Positions 40,875 through 50,543 are shown, counted from the stretch's first letter. The stretch: 64,000 nt of DNA from Clostridia bacterium (GCA_017461545.1 JAFTXP010000003.1:15549-79548), one strand, 5' to 3'. Made by a program: numbers and translations. The notes: generated by a model from the sequence alone, not told the origin.

Positions 40875-41177
40875 ATGGCAAACTTTATTGAAGAATTTTT
40901 CTACGGCAATATTGAGCCGCAAGCGAGAAGCAGGAAACAAAGCAAGGCTGTTCAAAAGCAAATGGAAATCTTGATGACAAACGAGGATTTGTTGACGGCG
41001 GCTTTGACCGATGATAACAAAAAGATGTTTCTTGACTATGTGAACGCTTGGGGCGTTGTAAACGGCGAATCAATATTAGACAGTTTCATAATGGGTTTTC
41101 GGTTGGGTGCGAAATTCACATACGACACCTTTATCGGAACGGATACTCCGTTCGAGGATCTCTTGAAGGAGCGATGA
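40875..41177 (+). CDS. Small conserved mobile-element protein (DUF6809-like)
   Basis: IEEFFYGNIEP...F..GFRLGA pattern; GGAGG RBS. Confidence 0.75.
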   Translation: MANFIEEFFYGNIEPQARSRKQSKAVQKQMEILMTNEDLLTAALTDDNKKMFLDYVNAWGVVNGESILDSFIMGFRLGAKFTYDTFIGTDTPFEDLLKER

Positions 41178-41179
41178 TA

Positions 41180-41359
41180 ATGAAGAAGTATTACATAGTA
41201 TTTGATGAATACGAAAAAGGAATTATCATCAACTCTCTTAATGACAAACGGAACGCTCTCATAAAAGAAGGGCGATATACCGATGCAGTTGACGAAGTTC
41301 TGCTGAAAGTCATAAACGCAAAGCAAAAGAGATTTAAGATTAGATATACGGAGGATTAA
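41180..41359 (+). CDS. Small hypothetical protein common in Clostridial mobile elements
   Basis: MKKYYIVFDEYE..IINSL...RN.LI.EGRYTDAVDE; AAGGAG RBS. Confidence 0.7.
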   Translation: MKKYYIVFDEYEKGIIINSLNDKRNALIKEGRYTDAVDEVLLKVINAKQKRFKIRYTED

Positions 41360-41363
41360 GATT

Positions 41364-41735
41364 ATGAAAAAGACTATATTTGAGCAAATGGGCGGCACAT
41401 ATACAAAAGTTGGTGATTATTACTTACCTAACCTTTTGCTCGCTGAAAAAGGAACAGAAATCGGCTTGTGGGGGCAGCGGCACCTACGGTACATTAAGCA
41501 GCACAGAAAAGTGTTATATACCAATCTGCTGACAAGCGGCAAGCTGAACGGCTATCTCTCTGACATTGACAAGCAAGCCGAGGATATGTTTTTTCGGCTC
41601 GTAAAGCAGATAGCAGAGCGTGAGGGCGTGACGGAACAACTCAAAGCGAACAACCAAATGGAATGGGTTGCCCATATGAACAACATCCGTAGCAGAGTCA
41701 CGGAAATCGTAACCCACGATATTATTTTCAACTAA
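41364..41735 (+). CDS. tnpV: Transposon-encoded TnpV protein
   Basis: FEQMGGTY..VGDYYLPNL, IG.WG.RH, GVTEQLKA..QMEWV..MNNIR. Confidence 0.9.
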   Translation: MKKTIFEQMGGTYTKVGDYYLPNLLLAEKGTEIGLWGQRHLRYIKQHRKVLYTNLLTSGKLNGYLSDIDKQAEDMFFRLVKQIAEREGVTEQLKANNQMEWVAHMNNIRSRVTEIVTHDIIFN

Positions 41736-41744
41736 CTGAAGCAC

Positions 41745-41773
41745 GGCGGCAGCGAGATTAACTCTCTGCCGTC
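41745..41773 (+). terminator. Stem-loop after tnpV
   Basis: GGCGGCAG...CTGCCGTC followed by T-rich sequence. Confidence 0.5.
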
Positions 41774-41824
41774 CTTCTATTTGTAAATTTTTTCGGACAA
41801 ATTACTGCAATTATCAGAAAAGCA

Positions 41825-41853
41825 TTGCAAAAAGCAAGGTTTTATGATAAAAT
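41825..41853 (+). promoter_or_regulatory. Sigma-A-like promoter of the tetR-surface protein operon
   Basis: TTGCAA-17 nt-TAAAAT with extended TG. Confidence 0.6.
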
Positions 41854-41907
41854 TGCATTAGTGCAAAAACAAAAACGTGTGCAAACTGTGGTTACAGGAG
41901 GTGCCAA

Positions 41908-42648
41908 GTGGCTGGGAAACGAGTTAAAACAACGAAATATGAGATCATTCAGGTAGCGTCCGAGTTCTTTATGAGTGTTGGCTATTCTGCAACCTCACCG
42001 AAAATGATCGCAAATGAATTGAATATAAGTACGGGCAATATTACCTACTATTTCCCCACAAAAGACCATCTGCTATTAGAAATAGTCAAGATGCTATGTG
42101 ATTATCAGTGGGAGCTGATAACAGAGAAGACCGGCAATAACGGAGGGAACATTTCTTCTATCTGCCTTGAAATGATGACAGTCGTTTCCGGCTGTGCCGA
42201 GAGTGATATTGCAAGAGATTTCTTTACTGCGGTGTTCCAAAGCGAAATGTGTCGCAACTATTTGCGCAGGAATCATGAGGAACGTGCAAAGAAGATTTTT
42301 GCAAAGGAATGTGCCGATTGGACGGACGAGCAATTTACAGAGGCGGAATTGCTTGTTATGGGGCTTCAATACACAAGTGTTGTTGCAACGGATGCCAAGG
42401 TTTCTGCCGAAAGAAAAGCATTGCGAGCACTTGAACATATCCTTGGCATCTATAACGTGGATAAGGAAGCTCGTAAAGCAGAAATCGAAAAGGTTGTTTC
42501 GTCTGACTACCGGGAAATGGGAAAACCTATGCTTCGGCAGTTCATCAAGTATGTTGAAGATACGAATATACAGACACTGGAAAATATGTTGCGAGGAAAT
42601 CGCAGAAACAAAATAACCGGTACTTCAGTATTGGAGGTTTCAATATGA
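41908..42648 (+). CDS. TetR/AcrR family transcriptional regulator
   Basis: N-terminal HTH: F...GY.ATS...IA..L.IS.GNI.YYFPTK. Confidence 0.88.
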   Translation: MAGKRVKTTKYEIIQVASEFFMSVGYSATSPKMIANELNISTGNITYYFPTKDHLLLEIVKMLCDYQWELITEKTGNNGGNISSICLEMMTVVSGCAESDIARDFFTAVFQSEMCRNYLRRNHEERAKKIFAKECADWTDEQFTEAELLVMGLQYTSVVATDAKVSAERKALRALEHILGIYNVDKEARKAEIEKVVSSDYREMGKPMLRQFIKYVEDTNIQTLENMLRGNRRNKITGTSVLEVSI

Positions 42649-45600
42649 ATAAGAAGTCCTTTGTGAAAAGAATTCTGGCTGTGGCCTTGAGCTTGATTAT
42701 GGTACTGGGTTTGATGCCAATGACGGTATTTGCCGATGGGACATACACGTTTACACCGACAACGCAGTCGGGAAACAATACAAGCACCATACAGTATTCT
42801 ATGACTGATGAAAATGCAGGTGACTTCACCCTTACCCAGAATAACCAACGGATAGAGCTGGTGCTTATGCTCGACGAGGGCTGGTATTTTGAAAAATGGG
42901 ATACGTATTTTGACGGTTATGAGGATGTAGCGATTCTAACAGACCCCAAGATCGAGGGGGTCAACCCTAAACCCGATAACGGTAGCTACACCTTTTTTAA
43001 TCAAGGTGGAGATGACCCCATTTACGATGAGGAAGGCCCCTCTAACAACAGTTACTACAGCGGGACCAGAGTTGAAAATTGGGCGAAAGACATATATGTC
43101 CTAATCCATACGCCCTATTACGGTCGCCACACCATCACCGCCGTTTTAAAGCCGATCTTAACCGTGAACGCAGGCGATGGTATTGACTATCAGATAGCCA
43201 CAAACAGCCCCTCGTACAGATATTTGGCAGAAAACCAAGCTGCTGTAAAATACGGCGATAATGCAACCGTTACCTACAGCGTTGACAATAAGTACGTTGT
43301 GACGGGCGTGAGCGCTAACTATAACACCAATTATTCCGAGAACGGAACAGTCGTCACGGTAAACTCTATTAAAAAACCGGCTACCGTCACCATTCGAACA
43401 AGACTAAAACAGCACAACATTGTTTTCGATGCAAACGGTGGCGAAGGTACAATGGCCCAGCAGAGTTATTCCTACGGCGAAGCACAGGCGTTAACTGCTA
43501 ACAGCTTTACAAGAAGTGATTATACATTTGCAGGATGGAATACAAAGTCGGACGGTTCTGGCACAGCTTATACCGACAAACAATCTATCACCTTTACCCC
43601 TGCAAATGACGGCGACAGCATTACTCTGTATGCCCAGTGGGAACGGAGCAATTACACCGTAAGTTTTGATGCCAATGGCGGCACGAATACAATGGATGCG
43701 GTCAAAGTAGATAGGAACAGCGAATATACTCTGCCTGTAAACGGCTTTACTGCGCCAAGCGCATATCAGTTTAAGGGCTGGGCAACCTCGGCAAACGGTG
43801 ATGTTATCTCCGCCGAGACGATAACCGTAACTGCCGACACCACCCTTTACGCCATTTGGGAAAAGATCCCCGCAGAGGCACCCATCGTGCAGATCAGTGG
43901 TAATTTGGAACTCATCTATGGTGAATTTACGAATCAGAAAATCACCGTTACCGTTGAGGAAAAGGAAGGCTATGCCTATTCGTACTACTGGGTAGATCTC
44001 GCCTCTGAAAATTTTGATGAGGTGGTTGCAACAACCGATACTTTTAACATTCCCGATAATATGAGCGTGGGCGATCACTTCTATGACTGTGCCGTTATCG
44101 CAACGCGCGAAGACAACGGTGAATCCAGTTCGACCATCATTCGGGATATATATGTCGGGATCAAGCCAAAGGAGATCGACAATAATGGTGCCGATGTTAC
44201 CTTGAGCAAAACTGAGTTTACCTATAACGGAGAAGATCAAAAACCTGATGTTGCCATAACCTATAAGGGCAAACCCTTGACCGAGGGCACCGATTACACG
44301 ATTAGTTGGCCGGCTGATTGCAAAAATGCGGGTCTTAAGACCATAACGGTAAACTTTATGGGCAACTACAGCGGTAGTGTACAAAAGACCTTTACCATCG
44401 AAAAAGCCACCCCTGTGATCGGAACGGTGAGCGTTGATGGCGTAGTGAATGATACAACGAAGCCTTACGATGTCGTGCTTACCCGCACCGATTTGACCAT
44501 TGACGGTAAGCTGGAGCTGGATATGGCAGACGATGATGCAATGCTCGCAAACAAGTCTGCTTACAACTGGGTATTTACACCGACCGATACCGCTAACTAC
44601 AACGTAATTAAAGGTAGCGTGCAGATTGATGTGCTTGATACCGTAGTACCTAACGGCACTATCAAGGTAGATACCAACGAGTGGAAGCAAATTATCAACA
44701 ACATTACCTTCGGCTTGTTCTTCAAGGAAACGCAGGAAGTGACCATCACCGCAGCCGATAACGAAAACGGCAGCGGAATCAAGGACATTCTCTACTTCGT
44801 TTCGGATAAGGAACTGAGTGACGACGACCTTGCAGCCGCAGAGTGGAAATCCTATACCGAAGCCTTTGACATTGAGCCAGACGGCAAGTTTGTGGTCTAC
44901 GCAAAGATTACCGATAACGACGGCAACGCAGTTATTATTAACTCGGACGGCGTGGTGGTTGACGAAACCGCAGCAGTAGTCAGCGGCATTACCGATGGCG
45001 AGACCTATTATGGTCAGCTTGTGTTTACCGCTACAGACGCTCTTGCCGGTATTAAGTCGGTTGAAATCGACGGCATTGACAAGACCCATTTTGAAGGTCA
45101 GTATGTTATCAACGCCGACAATGCCGAGCACACGGTTGTCGTTACCGATAATGCAGGAAACGTGACTGAGTATAAAGTGACGGTTTACAAGAATTACACC
45201 GTGATTTACAAGGCGAACGGCGAAACGGTTGCAGAAATCACGGTTGGCCATGGTGAGAATGCCGCCTTCCCGAAGGTTCCGCCGAAAGACGGTTACGTTG
45301 GCAAGTGGGATCGGAACAATGAGAATATCACTTCCGACACGGTTATCAATGCGGTCTACACCGAGATTCCGGTTGTGAAACCCGATGAAGTTAAGCCGGG
45401 GGATAAGGCAGATCTTGAAGATACCAAAAAGCAGCTTGAAGATATGCTGGATGATGATTCCTACACCGAGGACGACAAGAAGGACATCCAAGATGCCATT
45501 GACAACATCGACGATGCTCTTGCAGAGCTGAATAAGCCTGTAACAAATCCCGACAGCCCTCAAACCGGCGATAACAGCCAAATAGCACTGTGGATCACAC

Positions 45601-45674
45601 TCCTCTTCATCAGCGGCGGCGCAGTAATCACTCTGACCGTCTATGACAGAAAGAGAAGAACGGCAAACAGATAA
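42645..45674 (+). CDS. Sortase-anchored surface protein with InlB B-repeat (Listeria-Bacteroides) and Ig/MBG-like domains
   Basis: Signal peptide; two FDANGG..G.M...F.GW repeats; TYNG..QKP...GTDY module; C-terminal SPQTG + TM + basic tail. Confidence 0.88.
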   Translation: MNKKSFVKRILAVALSLIMVLGLMPMTVFADGTYTFTPTTQSGNNTSTIQYSMTDENAGDFTLTQNNQRIELVLMLDEGWYFEKWDTYFDGYEDVAILTDPKIEGVNPKPDNGSYTFFNQGGDDPIYDEEGPSNNSYYSGTRVENWAKDIYVLIHTPYYGRHTITAVLKPILTVNAGDGIDYQIATNSPSYRYLAENQAAVKYGDNATVTYSVDNKYVVTGVSANYNTNYSENGTVVTVNSIKKPATVTIRTRLKQHNIVFDANGGEGTMAQQSYSYGEAQALTANSFTRSDYTFAGWNTKSDGSGTAYTDKQSITFTPANDGDSITLYAQWERSNYTVSFDANGGTNTMDAVKVDRNSEYTLPVNGFTAPSAYQFKGWATSANGDVISAETITVTADTTLYAIWEKIPAEAPIVQISGNLELIYGEFTNQKITVTVEEKEGYAYSYYWVDLASENFDEVVATTDTFNIPDNMSVGDHFYDCAVIATREDNGESSSTIIRDIYVGIKPKEIDNNGADVTLSKTEFTYNGEDQKPDVAITYKGKPLTEGTDYTISWPADCKNAGLKTITVNFMGNYSGSVQKTFTIEKATPVIGTVSVDGVVNDTTKPYDVVLTRTDLTIDGKLELDMADDDAMLANKSAYNWVFTPTDTANYNVIKGSVQIDVLDTVVPNGTIKVDTNEWKQIINNITFGLFFKETQEVTITAADNENGSGIKDILYFVSDKELSDDDLAAAEWKSYTEAFDIEPDGKFVVYAKITDNDGNAVIINSDGVVVDETAAVVSGITDGETYYGQLVFTATDALAGIKSVEIDGIDKTHFEGQYVINADNAEHTVVVTDNAGNVTEYKVTVYKNYTVIYKANGETVAEITVGHGENAAFPKVPPKDGYVGKWDRNNENITSDTVINAVYTEIPVVKPDEVKPGDKADLEDTKKQLEDMLDDDSYTEDDKKDIQDAIDNIDDALAELNKPVTNPDSPQTGDNSQIALWITLLFISGGAVITLTVYDRKRRTANR

Positions 45675-45690
45675 ACAATCGACTCAACCC

Positions 45691-45722
45691 AAAGGGTGGC
45701 AGACCGAAATCTGCCGCCCTTT
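45691..45722 (+). terminator. Terminator of the surface-protein gene
   Basis: AAAGGGTGGCAGA...TCTGCCGCCCTTT followed by ATTT. Confidence 0.65.
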
Positions 45723-45789
45723 ATTTGTGCCTAAACTAAATAGTATTCCCATAAATTATGACAAATATTCAAAACCGTCACTAAAACCA

Positions 45790-45819
45790 TTGACAAACGT
45801 TAGTTCGATAGTATATAAT
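45790..45819 (+). promoter_or_regulatory. Consensus sigma-A promoter
   Basis: TTGACA-18 nt-TATAAT. Confidence 0.7.
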
Positions 45820-45825
45820 AAAATT

Positions 45826-46073
45826 CCTCTTATGAGGGACTACAACTGAATACGATGTAAGATTGAGATGTGGCAAAGCCACCCAACGCCGACGGTATGC
45901 TAAGAGAAAATACCGTCACCCACCACTCTATGCGTTTTGGTACTGTTAGCGAGTGTATGGGTGCGATAACAGTCCCGTCTTTGAATTTCAAAGCCGTTAC
46001 ATAGAACATCATTTTGAAGCGAGAGTAACGCTCCCGCCGATTTTTGATGTCTGTGTAGCGGCTTTTTTGTTTT
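45826..46073 (+). ncRNA. Candidate structured ncRNA / long leader RNA
   Basis: Promoter upstream. Nested stems GGGACT/AGTCCC, GTGGC/GCCAC, GACGGTAT/ATACCGTC and CACCCACCACTC/GAGTGTATGGGTG, then a long G-U-containing terminal hairpin and T tract. No credible ORF. Confidence 0.55.
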
Positions 46074-46370
46074 GTCCTTTTTCGGCTTCAGAAAAAGTTT
46101 ACAAAAATAATTTGTCCAAAATCCGAAAAAAGTCAGCAATTAAATATTAGAGAAAATTTTTGCGAAAAGATTGGATTTTTTGCCCTTCTCGCTGCCTACT
46201 TATTGAGGGGTAAATAAAGCCGCTTGTACTTAACAACAGAATGACCGTCTGAATGGGATACGATTTTGCGATGATATGAGCGAAACAACGCCGCTGAAAA
46301 GCAGGGGCAGGAACGACATTTGGGTAGAACGGCAAAACCCAAAGACACCAGCCGAAAGGAGTGATTAAAA

Positions 46371-46736
46371 ATGCAGATGACCAAAGGTGAACGACTTGTA
46401 GCCGAAATGCTCGGAGATATACCGCAGACGGGGATGCCCGTGCTGACCGAGGAACACCCTTTTCTTCGGAAAGTAATTGCCTTTATGAAAACGAGGAAGG
46501 AATGGCTCGGTACGGCTACCGATCTGCTGAACGCTATTGGAGATAACTATACCCCGCCCAACACCCTCACCAAACTGTTGCGGAAATATGATTATCAATA
46601 TCTATACAAGGAAAAAGGAATTGATGTGTCCTTCCGCCGTACCAACCGTAAAAGGCTCATAGGGTTATGCAACAGATTTTATTCCCGTAATGACAGTTCC
46701 GTGTACGGTAGCGGTGACGGTTGTTTTCAGAGATAG
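46371..46736 (+). CDS. Hypothetical protein resembling the C-terminal winged-helix part of mobile-element AAA/RepA-like proteins
   Basis: AAGGAG RBS; W.GTATDLL...PNTL.KLL pattern. Confidence 0.55.
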   Translation: MQMTKGERLVAEMLGDIPQTGMPVLTEEHPFLRKVIAFMKTRKEWLGTATDLLNAIGDNYTPPNTLTKLLRKYDYQYLYKEKGIDVSFRRTNRKRLIGLCNRFYSRNDSSVYGSGDGCFQR

Positions 46737-46757
46737 GAGTAATCAAAAGAGAAAGCC

Positions 46758-46860
46758 CTATGCCTGTCCACAGGTATAGCGAGCATCGGATTTTGACACC
46801 AAAATCCAATCCACACCCTAAAGGGATGTGGACTATACTCAGGGGACACCCCCTGAATAC
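46758..46860. other. Putative oriT region
   Basis: Four adjacent inverted repeats directly upstream of mobC (e.g. GGATTTTG/CAAAATCC, TCCACA.CCCT/AGGG.TGTGGA, TCAGGGG/CCCCTGA). Confidence 0.45.
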
Positions 46861-46884
46861 CCCTAATACAAAGGAGATGATTTT

Positions 46885-47172
46885 ATGAAAGATAAGGATA
46901 CTGTTCGCATTTCAGTACGGCTATCCGAAGAAGAAAAAGAACTTTTGGAACGCTCGGCAAAGCTGTGCGGACTATCCCAATCGGAATTTGTACGGCAGCT
47001 TTGCAAAGGTAAAACACCGAAGCCGCAACCGTCAAAGGAGTTTTGGAAACTGCTTGAAGCACTCTACGATGTTCACAAAGGCTTTAAGGAGTGTGCAAAG
47101 TATGAGCCTTCCGCATTGAATGTCTGTAAGGAAATTGAGTGCCTTATCCTCGATTTACAGGAGGTGGGATAA
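46885..47172 (+). CDS. mobC: MobC-like ribbon-helix-helix mobilization protein
   Basis: ISVRLSEEE..L...A..CGLS.SEFVR RHH pattern, immediately upstream of the relaxase. Confidence 0.8.
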   Translation: MKDKDTVRISVRLSEEEKELLERSAKLCGLSQSEFVRQLCKGKTPKPQPSKEFWKLLEALYDVHKGFKECAKYEPSALNVCKEIECLILDLQEVG

Positions 47173-48534
47173 ATGGCAACTACAAGTTTATGGCATATTG
47201 AAGGTCGGTTAAAAGACCTTATTGCCTATGTAGAAAATCCCGAAAAGACGGTAGCGAATAATCCGAGCTTACAACCGCTATGGGAAGTAATGTCTTACGT
47301 CAGCCGCCCCGAAGCTACCGAGCAAGGCGAATATGTTTCCACTATAAACTGCTTGAAGGAGATCGCCTTGCAGCAGATGATCCTAACGAAAAAACAGTAC
47401 GGCAAAGAAAATGGATATATCGCTTGGCACGGTTATCAGAGCTTTAAGCCGGATGAGGTTACGGCAAAAGAAGCACACGAAATCGGTATGCAGACCGCAA
47501 GAGAAATGTGGGGTGATCGGTATCAAATCATTGTTACCACCCACCTTGACAAAGACCATCTGCACAATCATTTCTGCTTTAATTCCGTGTCCTTTATTGA
47601 CGGTAAAAAGTATGACTATTCCAAGACAGAGCAACGAAAACTCCGTAGCGTATCTGACCGTATTTGTGCCGAGCACGGCTTATCGGTAATAAAGAATCCG
47701 CATAAAGCACCATCACGGCAAGTATGGCTCGACGAGAAAAGCGGTAAGCCTACCCGATACAATGTGTACCGTGAGGATGTTAGAGAAGCCATTGATTACA
47801 GCCGCACGCCCTACTATATGGAGGACTACCTACGGCGAAAAGGATATATTACCGACTTTACGGGAAAGCATTGGAAAATCAAATTGCCGCAGTATAAACA
47901 CTTTACCCGCCTTGATACCCTTAATGAAAAATGGACACCCGAAAATATCCGTTACTCTATGGGCAGATACGCTTCTTTTGGTAATCGCAGAGCGTATATC
48001 TCATATCCGAAAGATATGCCACAGGACTTGAAGGATTGGTTTCAGCCGTTTCGCAGGACAAGCCATATTTACCGCTTGTATCTGCACTACTGCTATCTGC
48101 TTGGCTACTTGCCAAAAAATACAGATTACAAGCCGACAAGTCCCTATCTCAAAGAGGACTTAAAAAAGCTCGAAGAAATCTCCGAGCAAGTACGGTATAT
48201 GAGCAAATACGGCATTGAAACCTTTGACGATCTGTATGCAGACCGAGCAAAGATTGAAAGTGATATGGATAGGCTGATTGAAGTCCGTACCAAATTGCAA
48301 AACAAAATCCGCAGAGCAACACCCGCCGAAAAAGAACGCCTACGAGAAGAAAAGGCGGGCGTTACGGCTCGGATAACTGAACTGCGGAAACAACTGAAAA
48401 TGAACAAAGGCATTGAGGAACGTTCCGTTAAGATCCAAGAGAAAACAGATATGTTCTTCGCCAACGAAATTGCGGCAAAACAAGCCGAACAACAACGAAT
48501 CAGAGAAAGACAGAGAGGAGGTTGGGAACGATGA
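47173..48534 (+). CDS. Relaxase/mobilization nuclease (MOB_P / VirD2-like)
   Basis: MATTSLW, YV.NPEKT, HGYQSF, THLDKDHLHNHF.FNSVS (3H motif). Confidence 0.92.
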   Translation: MATTSLWHIEGRLKDLIAYVENPEKTVANNPSLQPLWEVMSYVSRPEATEQGEYVSTINCLKEIALQQMILTKKQYGKENGYIAWHGYQSFKPDEVTAKEAHEIGMQTAREMWGDRYQIIVTTHLDKDHLHNHFCFNSVSFIDGKKYDYSKTEQRKLRSVSDRICAEHGLSVIKNPHKAPSRQVWLDEKSGKPTRYNVYREDVREAIDYSRTPYYMEDYLRRKGYITDFTGKHWKIKLPQYKHFTRLDTLNEKWTPENIRYSMGRYASFGNRRAYISYPKDMPQDLKDWFQPFRRTSHIYRLYLHYCYLLGYLPKNTDYKPTSPYLKEDLKKLEEISEQVRYMSKYGIETFDDLYADRAKIESDMDRLIEVRTKLQNKIRRATPAEKERLREEKAGVTARITELRKQLKMNKGIEERSVKIQEKTDMFFANEIAAKQAEQQRIRERQRGGWER

Positions 48535-48770
48535 CAAATACCGATAGAAACGATGATATTTACAAGGTCATAGATGAAATTACAGATTACCTTGCAACGC
48601 TTACCAAAGAGGAACGTATTGTTTGGTTTAAGAGGAATATGTACCTTGAACCGCTGAACTTCGTAAAGGAGATTGACGGTACTCTTTATGCGGTCAGAAC
48701 TTTCTTTAAGGAAGATGCAAAGGAAAACATCACCGAAAAGGTTGAACGCATAATTTTGAAAAAACAATGA
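48531..48770 (+). CDS. tnpW: Transposon-encoded TnpW family protein
   Basis: KEIDGT.Y.V..FF...AKE....KV.RII pattern, directly upstream of the recombinase. Confidence 0.65.
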   Translation: MTNTDRNDDIYKVIDEITDYLATLTKEERIVWFKRNMYLEPLNFVKEIDGTLYAVRTFFKEDAKENITEKVERIILKKQ

Positions 48771-48798
48771 AAAACTTTCGATTTACCGCATTAAAGTG

Positions 48799-50543
<1,745 letters not shown>

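Follow-up and report, generated by a model that had tools for sequence, protein, structure and literature searches.

A structured RNA ahead of the mobilization genes

We analyzed a window of 64,000 nucleotides (nt) from a Clostridia bacterium (GCA_017461545.1 JAFTXP010000003.1:15549-79548), in which Pfam matches outline an element of ~10 kb (40875-50543). This looks like a Tn4451-like mobilizable element, and its flanks carry a GINT1_N-like gene and a 2-oxoacid dehydrogenase-like gene. Within the element, between variable cargo and the genes for mobilization, lies a noncoding RNA with its own promoter. The RNA represents a real, widespread, and uncatalogued structured family, and its role is likely regulatory. 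Its features, and those of a second structured element that follows it (block 2), are listed below, with positions counted from the first letter of the window and stem lengths in base pairs (bp).

45790-45819, + strand: sigma-70-type promoter TTGACA-18-TATAAT, a 12/12 consensus match
45795-45806, no strand assigned: LexA (Cheo)-like box AAAC-N4-GTTC in the promoter spacer, one mismatch from GAAC-N4-GTTC
45826-45837, + strand: P0, a small 5'-terminal hairpin CCTC/GAGG directly after the inferred start site, assigned from sequence
45842-45852, + strand: invariant, single-stranded motif ACAACTGAATA, with 8 positions invariant in 92 sequences
45870-45882, + strand: P2, hairpin GTGGC/GCCAC (covariation, helix 1)
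45891-45917, + strand: P3, hairpin GACGGTAT/ATACCGTC (covariation, helix 2)
45917-45963, + strand: P4, hairpin CACCCACCACTC/GAGTGTATGGGTG, with outer and inner stems (covariation, helices 3 and 4)
45939-45976, + strand: H-type pseudoknot, the P4 loop strand 45939-45947 with 45968-45976 (covariation, 9 pairs)
45979-45993, + strand: P5, a small hairpin whose 3' strand overlaps the base of P6
45990-46065, + strand: P6, a long two-part hairpin with a 21-bp lower stem (one bulge), a 7x7 internal loop, and a 7-bp upper stem
46063-46073, + strand: U tract, forming an intrinsic-terminator-like site with P6
46080-46223, + strand: variable insert of ~145 nt between the P6 hairpin and block 2, absent in genome G015
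46233-46335, + strand: block 2, a second conserved structured element that opens with a second copy of the motif and forms a three-way junction

A first-pass annotation, made from the sequence of the window, had described a discrete, promoter-driven, multi-stem RNA at this position, and the promoter, the predicted fold, and the covarying helices all support that description. The individual features it had noted were recovered: the consensus promoter, the hairpins, the G-U-containing lower stem of P6 (45990-46011/46045-46065), the T tract, and both copies of the motif. The second copy, ACAACAGAATG, lies at 46233-46243, and the form shared by the two copies is ACAAC.GAAT. The ~250 nt after the promoter fold with a minimum free energy of -82.9 kcal/mol, compared with -60.8 +/- 4.2 kcal/mol after shuffling (z = -5.2; 0 of 200 shuffles as good). 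The minus strand folds nearly equally (z = -5.0), and energy alone therefore cannot assign the strand. P6 is missed by a simple terminator scan with a loop limit of 8.

Distribution, subtypes, and covariation of the family

A BLAST search with 45780-46090 against 399 genomes of the same class gave matches at E <= 0.001 in 10 genomes besides the window's own. Five of these (G015, G317, G127, G308, and G172) matched over more than 70 nt, and their alignment retained the promoter, the motif, and the terminal hairpin around a divergent middle. A pattern derived from the P6 hairpin, applied to one genome per species, returned at least 119 loci. Among the matches listed, 99 of 119 had AAC.GAATA 119-183 nt upstream (mostly 138-162), and the other 20 were set aside; the motif served solely as a filter after the pattern scan, not as a search string. 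The family is present in at least 99 species-level genomes. Removal of loci with a short flank and of exact duplicates left 91 distinct sequences, which were aligned together with the window. They form four subtypes with a common architecture: A (n = 25, including the window), B (n = 17), C (n = 40), and D (n = 10).

Judged by record title, almost all carriers are Clostridia (for example Oscillospiraceae, Lachnospiraceae, Ruminococcus, and Acutalibacteraceae). Many are gut metagenome bins of animal or human origin, and a few bins are labelled as other phyla. There are a few isolates, and the cultured carriers include Oscillibacter sp. MSJ-31, Agathobaculum ammoniilyticum, Fumia xinanensis, Holdemania sp., and Eubacteriales KG125. 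The same hairpin pattern matched once in 2.9 million viral contigs, and the RNA is therefore not a phage feature. No blastn match of 45680-46370 was obtained to any of 72,556 plasmid records. One record of a phage collection, MT839657.1 (3113-3183; a 4.1-kb "Bacteriophage sp." from human feces), holds 69 nt of block 2 only, at 82% identity, and may be a piece of a mobilizable element under a wrong label.

The first-pass annotation could not place the RNA in a known family, and comparison with Rfam 15 agreed. There was no match at the gathering score in the 64-kb window; a search of 45600-46450 at E <= 10 gave chance-level hits only (<=18.6 bits, to unrelated eukaryotic or viral families); and 20 related loci spanning all four subtypes gave 0 matches at E <= 0.01. 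No description of the motif or the family was found in the main text of open-access papers, including papers on noncoding RNA discovery searched by term, and the motif strings retrieved unrelated primer matches only.

Folded separately, the subtypes give one plan: P0, the motif predicted as unpaired, P2, P3, P4 with a loop that pairs just downstream, P5, and P6. P0 has a counterpart of differing sequence in the other subtypes, as judged by eye in alignments whose register varies between rows, so that no formal count applies. RNAalifold on a MAFFT alignment of all subtypes recovered two helices only, with the subtypes misaligned, and a covariance model of subtype A overcame this. The model, which covers the 5' domain and was built from subtype A alone with P2-P4 as its structure, matched 76 of 97 sources full-length at E <= 0.01, including members of subtypes B, C, and D at 22-46 bits.

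The covariation found in the alignment to this model carries the case for a conserved fold. The 22 pairs of P2-P4 are paired in 92.7% of cells, and 19 have changed on both sides. Their covariation, in an alignment that was fitted to P2-P4 and favors those pairs, is 0.541, compared with 0.191 after shuffling (0 of 500) and at most 0.080 after sliding; the relatives compared here and below are non-independent sequences. By helix, two-sided changes affect 4 of 5 pairs in P2 (89.8% of cells paired), 5 of 7 in P3 (95.4%), and 10 of 10 in P4 (89-96%). P3 was also recovered by RNAalifold from a plain MAFFT alignment. The pseudoknot pairs are absent from the model, and they are therefore clear of its fitting bias. 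All 9 were nevertheless well kept, with 97.9% of cells paired, 6 pairs changed on both sides, and a covariation of 0.306 compared with 0.154 after shuffling (0 of 500) and at most 0.145 after sliding. At one of them, A-U occurs in 41 rows and U-A in 26.

The 3' part was scored in the plain MAFFT alignment. P6 has 28 pairs, of which 6 show two-sided changes, with 94.5% of cells paired and a covariation of 0.175 compared with 0.141 after shuffling; its sequence conservation is partly built in, since the collecting pattern sits in this hairpin. Within P6, 227 G-U cells stand against 40 A-C cells. P5 has 5 pairs (96.7% paired), 2 of them with two-sided changes. Alignment column 272, at the base of P6, can pair in either hairpin, which makes P5 and the P6 base alternatives; its compensating change (A-U in 47 rows, G-C in 37) is on the P6 side. 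The end of the stem is spanned by nine bases with at least six T in 90 of 92 members. Over all helices, reading the + strand gives 418 G-U and 95 A-C cells, and this excess points to the + strand as the one that folds.

Covariation in homologs was a check that the first-pass annotation had itself named, and P2-P4, P6, and the pseudoknot are kept through compensatory changes. Its closing stem, GGGACT (45836-45841) with AGTCCC (45971-45976), fared differently: the complementarity exists in the window, but by eye it has no partner in the B, C, and D alignments, and its 3' strand belongs to the pseudoknot, which takes its place as the conserved helix. A four-pair closure ACUG/CAGU predicted for subtype A was also rejected, as by eye subtype D has no counterpart.

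Block 2 is conserved in the same manner. In 37 sequences its 25 pairs are paired in 97.9% of cells, 6 have two-sided changes, and covariation is 0.234 compared with 0.144 after shuffling (0 of 500). Its closing stem uses a further CYGAAUG. The sequence of block 2 is more conserved between subtypes than the 5' domain of the RNA, a conservation that is overstated by the choice of the set with two conserved strings. Subtype B loci not caught by the search pattern show a divergent form. The first-pass annotation had likened the repeated motif to boxA-like motifs of Firmicutes conjugative elements; in this analysis its second copy is the opening of block 2. From U tract to block 2, the distance is 16-25 nt in many loci, here called compact, and 140-250 nt in others, including the window and many of subtype A.

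No conserved open reading frame (ORF) was found in the stretch, as the first-pass annotation had also judged: overlapping ORFs of 44-79 amino acids (aa) cross subtype indels and covarying helices. A leader peptide starting at an ATG in the P0 loop, with a frame in the window that reaches TGA inside the motif, was rejected, since other members do not keep that frame and a ribosome-binding site is lacking.

The promoter is a constant part of the family. At the equivalent position, 88 of 92 members have a promoter matching at least 10 of 12 consensus positions, and the distance from the end of the -10 element to the motif is 24-41 nt, varying with subtype. GAAC-N4-GTTC, which we take to be the consensus of the Gram-positive LexA (Cheo) box, occurs without mismatch in the promoter spacer of 9 of 10 subtype D and 3 of 25 subtype A members. 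AAAC-N4-GTTC is found at the same offset in 15 of 17 subtype B and 7 of 25 subtype A members (the window and six others). The same check of promoter spacers across the family found the box in 0 subtype C members. The sequence of these boxes suggests LexA control of the promoter, and hence SOS induction of the elements that carry them.

Cargo upstream and transfer genes downstream

In the window, the part of the element upstream of the RNA encodes DUF6809 (40875), TnpV (41364), and TetR (41908) proteins and, directly before the RNA, a 1009-aa surface protein with Listeria-Bacteroides repeats (42645-45674). The following genes lie downstream.

46371-46736, + strand: ORF121, 121 aa, no family, the first ORF after the leader
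46885-47172, + strand: NikA-like MobC (Pfam)
47173-48534, + strand: MobA/VirD2-type relaxase (Pfam)
48522-48770: TnpW, after the relaxase
48861-50543: TnpX-like large serine recombinase, after TnpW

ORF121 has no match in Pfam (E <= 10) or NCBIfam, and the Protein Atlas returned unnamed clusters only. Its homologues (58-93% identity) follow the RNA in 8 other loci. The order ORF121-mobC-relaxase supports the earlier placement of the RNA directly ahead of the mob genes.

Gene content after the RNA was surveyed with Pfam on 90 same-strand ORFs in 46 loci that have at least one such ORF of >=70 aa. In 29 of the 46, the same strand encodes ParB_N, AAA_25, D5_N, a relaxase, or a relaxase accessory protein within ~1.15 kb. 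These comprise 11 loci with MobC/NikA and/or a PF03432 relaxase, 7 with DUF3847 and a PF03389 MobA/MobL relaxase, 3 with a PF01076 Mob/Pre relaxase, 5 (all subtype B) with a ParB_N protein, and 3 (all subtype D) with AAA_25 or D5_N primase/helicase-type genes. Seven further loci have a homologue of ORF121, as in the window, and two have unrelated downstream genes (RecA in one, VTT/CYTH in the other). Upstream, 48 ORFs represent unrelated cargo: VanZ, an ABC transporter, GNAT, type I restriction-modification, nitroreductase, ATPases/helicases, and regulators. With variable cargo on one side and mobilization or replication (mob/rep) genes on the other, the RNA marks the seam at which the conserved module starts. 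The cargo is often of defense type (type I restriction-modification subunits; AAA_13, AAA_14, or UvrD-like ATPases), as in L032, L053, L071, L073, L081, and others.

This diversity of neighbors bears on what the RNA could be. The first-pass annotation had offered, as one of two possibilities, an RNA partner of an element protein. A partnership with TnpX, TnpV, or TnpW is unlikely for an RNA whose modules encode relaxases of three unrelated families, ParB, or primase/helicase proteins and whose neighbors vary.

The position upstream of mobC-relaxase, and two motif copies that each follow a hairpin (P0 and P6), are what would be expected of an origin of transfer (oriT) that the relaxase of this element nicks at the repeated ACAACTGAAT after the hairpins. 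The same element, however, precedes non-homologous PF03432, PF03389, and PF01076 relaxases, as well as ParB or primase/helicase modules without a relaxase in reach. An RNA serving three non-homologous families is not the oriT of any one of them, and PF03432 loci have a separate inverted-repeat region further downstream by mobC; we regard the oriT explanation as hardly credible. The inverted-repeat region is conserved ~60-130 nt after the U tract in L033, L053, L074, L081, and L090, lying just upstream of mobC in PF03432 loci; in other loci of subtype C it is found beyond block 2. As an oriT, it is a stronger candidate than the RNA.

A function as single-stranded DNA was weighed on similar grounds. 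Hairpin-rich noncoding cassettes of 150-300 nt, such as ssoA, ssoU, and ssoT, lie beside mob genes in rolling-circle plasmids and in ICEBs1/Tn916; they move between backbones and are independent of relaxase type. The stretch studied here is a cassette of the same kind, with long imperfect hairpins beside Mob_Pre and other relaxase genes, whatever the relaxase type. It might act, as DNA hairpins, as an sso/ssi or as a Frpo-like single-strand promoter for complementary-strand synthesis after transfer. The nearly equal folding energy of the two strands would be consistent with this, and G-T wobbles are tolerated in single-stranded DNA as well. It differs from the sso cassettes by a conserved double-stranded promoter, in position before the fold in 88 of 92 members and often with an operator-like box, by the U/T tract after the hairpin in 90 of 92, by a pseudoknot maintained through compensatory changes, and by the lack of blastn similarity to the 72,556 plasmid records. 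The ssoA apical loop carries a conserved hexamer, whereas the apical loop of P6 is variable. These differences make a single-stranded DNA function very improbable.

A putative leader of the transfer operon

The best-supported reading, which remains tentative, is that the RNA is a cis-acting leader, or attenuator, of the transfer operon, the other possibility that the first-pass annotation had raised. A simple consensus scan of the + strand from 45400 to 46600 found one promoter-like site, that of the RNA itself. No second promoter was detected between cargo and mob start in the window, L046, L053, or L025, one locus per relaxase family, and the 16-25 nt of the compact loci leave no room for one. 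Transcription of the mob genes therefore most likely passes through P6, which would make the RNA a leader and P6 an attenuator. P6 has the anatomy of an intrinsic (Rho-independent) terminator, namely a paired hairpin (94.5% over 28 pairs) and a T-rich tail (90/92), with termination itself being predicted. Leader attenuators are common before Gram-positive conjugation operons (PMC13401043).

Under the leader reading, polymerase would start from the promoter at 45790-45819, which has a LexA-type operator in its spacer in many relatives (with one mismatch in the window). It would transcribe the 5' hairpin, the invariant ACAACUGAAUA stretch, and the pseudoknotted multi-helix domain (P2-P4 and the pseudoknot), and would then meet P6, an unusually long hairpin with a U tract. 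By default, most transcripts would stop there and yield an RNA of ~240-250 nt, and some polymerases would read through into block 2 and on into ORF121-mobC-relaxase. How large a fraction reads through could depend on the folded 5' domain, which might act with a bound factor or by pairing alternatively with the 5' arm of P6.

Several observations weigh against this reading. With 28 bp and a full U tract, P6 would suit firm termination and an independent RNA no less well than it would a switch; intrinsic terminator stems are typically 7-9 bp, and the 15-bp stem of TerR resists antitermination (PMC10325885). No convincing antiterminator helix conserved across subtypes was found. A candidate competing helix of 5-7 bp, in which nucleotides that follow the motif pair with the 5' arm of P6, is predicted in subtypes B, C, and D, with a register that differs between subtypes; it is absent from the prediction for the window's subtype, and it would leave the 16-bp lower stem of P6 intact. 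It is a weak candidate for antiterminator pairing. The sequences of P6 and block 2 are more conserved than those of usual expression platforms, in the case of P6 partly through the collecting pattern. The model of the 5' domain missed 21 of 97 sources, and promoters for other sigma factors would escape a simple consensus scan. Weak support for the leader reading comes from contigs of RNA libraries from two studies, which cross from the RNA body over the hairpin into block 2 (X7, 45841-46336; X10, 45733-46074 and then 46218-46333). Assembled contigs, here from four runs, reveal neither where transcripts start or end nor their strand or abundance, and they may derive from residual DNA. Contig starts at 45841 in two runs are probably breaks at the variable P0 region.

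The strength of the P6 terminator also fits a stand-alone, abundant, trans-acting small RNA (sRNA), with the mob genes transcribed otherwise. Such an RNA would be stabilized by its 5' hairpin and would act through the exposed ACAACUGAAUA, either competing with the two block 2 copies for the CAUUYGG strand of the closing stem or titrating a motif-binding factor. The gene anatomy is complete for this purpose: a consensus promoter, a 5' hairpin, and a long-stem terminator with its U tract (90/92). The motif is invariant, predicted to be unpaired, and repeated at the head of block 2, and its CUGAAU part can pair, using one G-U, with the conserved 3' strand of the block 2 closing stem. Terminator and block 2 lie 140-250 nt apart in the window and in many loci of subtype A. 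The lack of a second promoter-like site before the mob genes, and the short U tract-to-block 2 distance of the compact loci, are difficult to reconcile with separate transcription of those genes. The proposed trans pairing is merely ~6 bp long, and some loci (L033 and L053) have no block 2 recognizable by the search pattern. On balance we consider this explanation unlikely; were it true, the elements would carry an abundant sRNA.

The RNA could also act in cis as a processive antiterminator of the put, EAR, canT, or conAn2 kind, with the leader and/or block 2 bound to a polymerase that would then pass P6 and later terminators. P6 would in this case be an insulator, stopping polymerases that read in from the upstream cargo. 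The RNA is promoter-proximal, stands at the head of long transfer/replication operons, and borders variable, upstream-transcribed cargo. Its complex pseudoknotted fold is conserved independently of the downstream genes, which would fit a host partner such as RNA polymerase. Antiterminating RNAs are known on Gram-positive conjugative elements (PMC8191782; PMC11658703). However, transcripts reading in from the cargo would carry the RNA too, so that the insulation logic is not obviously satisfied, and a long stem is a feature reported to resist antitermination (PMC10325885). PF17362 (ConAn1-type) was not found, a weak negative detailed below, ORF121 has no Pfam match at E <= 10, and Rfam shows no similarity to known examples. 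We consider a processive antiterminator improbable.

A bolder form of the regulatory proposal is that the leader with its pseudoknot, by itself or jointly with block 2, belongs to a new class of RNAs that sense a signal or modify polymerase. Working as an ON switch in the manner of a riboswitch, or as a self-contained antiterminator, it would decide whether SOS-induced transcription enters the DNA-transfer genes. This proposal is doubtful. If true, gut Clostridia elements would have freely combined a portable cassette with three unrelated relaxase families and with ParB or primase/helicase modules, and horizontal gene transfer in the gut microbiome would share a common RNA checkpoint. The leader RNAs known in detail as gates of conjugation come from a few Bacillus/Enterococcus plasmids and Tn916, and no comparable RNA is known from the integrated mobilizable elements that prevail in gut Clostridia. 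If the RNA controls transfer, the mobility of many elements could be influenced at one point. In genome annotation, it would also cleanly flag where the core module starts.

Structured leaders of Gram-positive transfer operons are a known kind of RNA, and this family falls outside the memberships tested (Rfam, ConAn1, and the arrangement of stem and terminator). The closest arrangement is that of the cATT zipper-type attenuator of pLS20 and related Gram-positive conjugative plasmids (PMC13401043), likewise a structured 5' leader between the main transfer promoter and the first gene. Both have a long imperfect stem-loop and an intrinsic terminator, and both are widespread on Gram-positive mobile elements. 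In cATT, the core of the antiterminator is the long stem-loop, and a small terminator of its own comes after it, whereas here the long hairpin itself bears the U tract. A search for the cATT signature, a weak upstream hairpin and a separate downstream terminator with complementary strands that extend the long stem, found no separate terminator after P6, and P5 against the 4-bp P6 base as the sole flanking alternative. Unlike cATT, the RNA described here adds a multi-helix domain with a pseudoknot before the long hairpin and a further structured block after it, is not followed by conAn genes, and resides in integrated mobilizable elements of Clostridia rather than in Bacillus/lactobacillus plasmids (PMC13401043).

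Two other large structured RNAs, conAn2 (PMC8191782) and canT of Tn916 (PMC11658703), also open transfer operons of Firmicutes mobile elements, and they act, or are proposed to act, in cis on polymerase. The conAn2 RNA sits downstream of the conAn1 gene (Pfam PF17362; PMC8191782). In the window no such gene was found, and the gene immediately upstream is that of the surface protein. PF17362 has no match in the window's genome, a weak negative given that the genome is 69% complete and that 14 control genomes likewise had none. For canT, the length is 341-452 nt and there is no defined consensus for comparison (PMC11658703), and antitermination by the RNA studied here is only hypothetical. The long-stem terminators of the TerR kind (PMC10325885) resemble P6 in a stem far above 7-9 bp, a U tract, and location on a mobile element. 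They differ in that the 15-bp TerR stem ends an operon, whereas P6 (21 + 7 bp, with a conserved internal loop) opens one, 170 nt after the promoter.

The order of parts in this RNA is that of another group of regulators. Terminating riboswitches and protein-dependent attenuators comprise a promoter, a folded domain with a pseudoknot, a terminator hairpin, and same-strand genes. A conserved pseudoknotted domain is present here as well. Unlike those regulators, the family has no ligand-linked gene set, the mob/rep genes implying no ligand; its conserved single-stranded core consists mainly of an 11-nt motif; the search for a switching helix gave no clear one, the candidate being short and register-shifting; and the terminator is conserved in sequence.

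Two minor observations concern P6 and the insert that follows it. In the 7x7 internal loop of P6 (46012-46018 with 46038-46044), GA lies opposite GA, with U runs on both sides. The GA/GA arrangement is conserved in subtypes A-C and not in D, and is a candidate tandem sheared G-A of the type found in kink-turn and loop-E motifs. A piece of ~40 nt of the insert (46171-46211) recurs three times downstream of the RNA in G172 (L006 810-845, 886-927, and 945-968) at 84-92% identity and may be a small repeat or an operator array.

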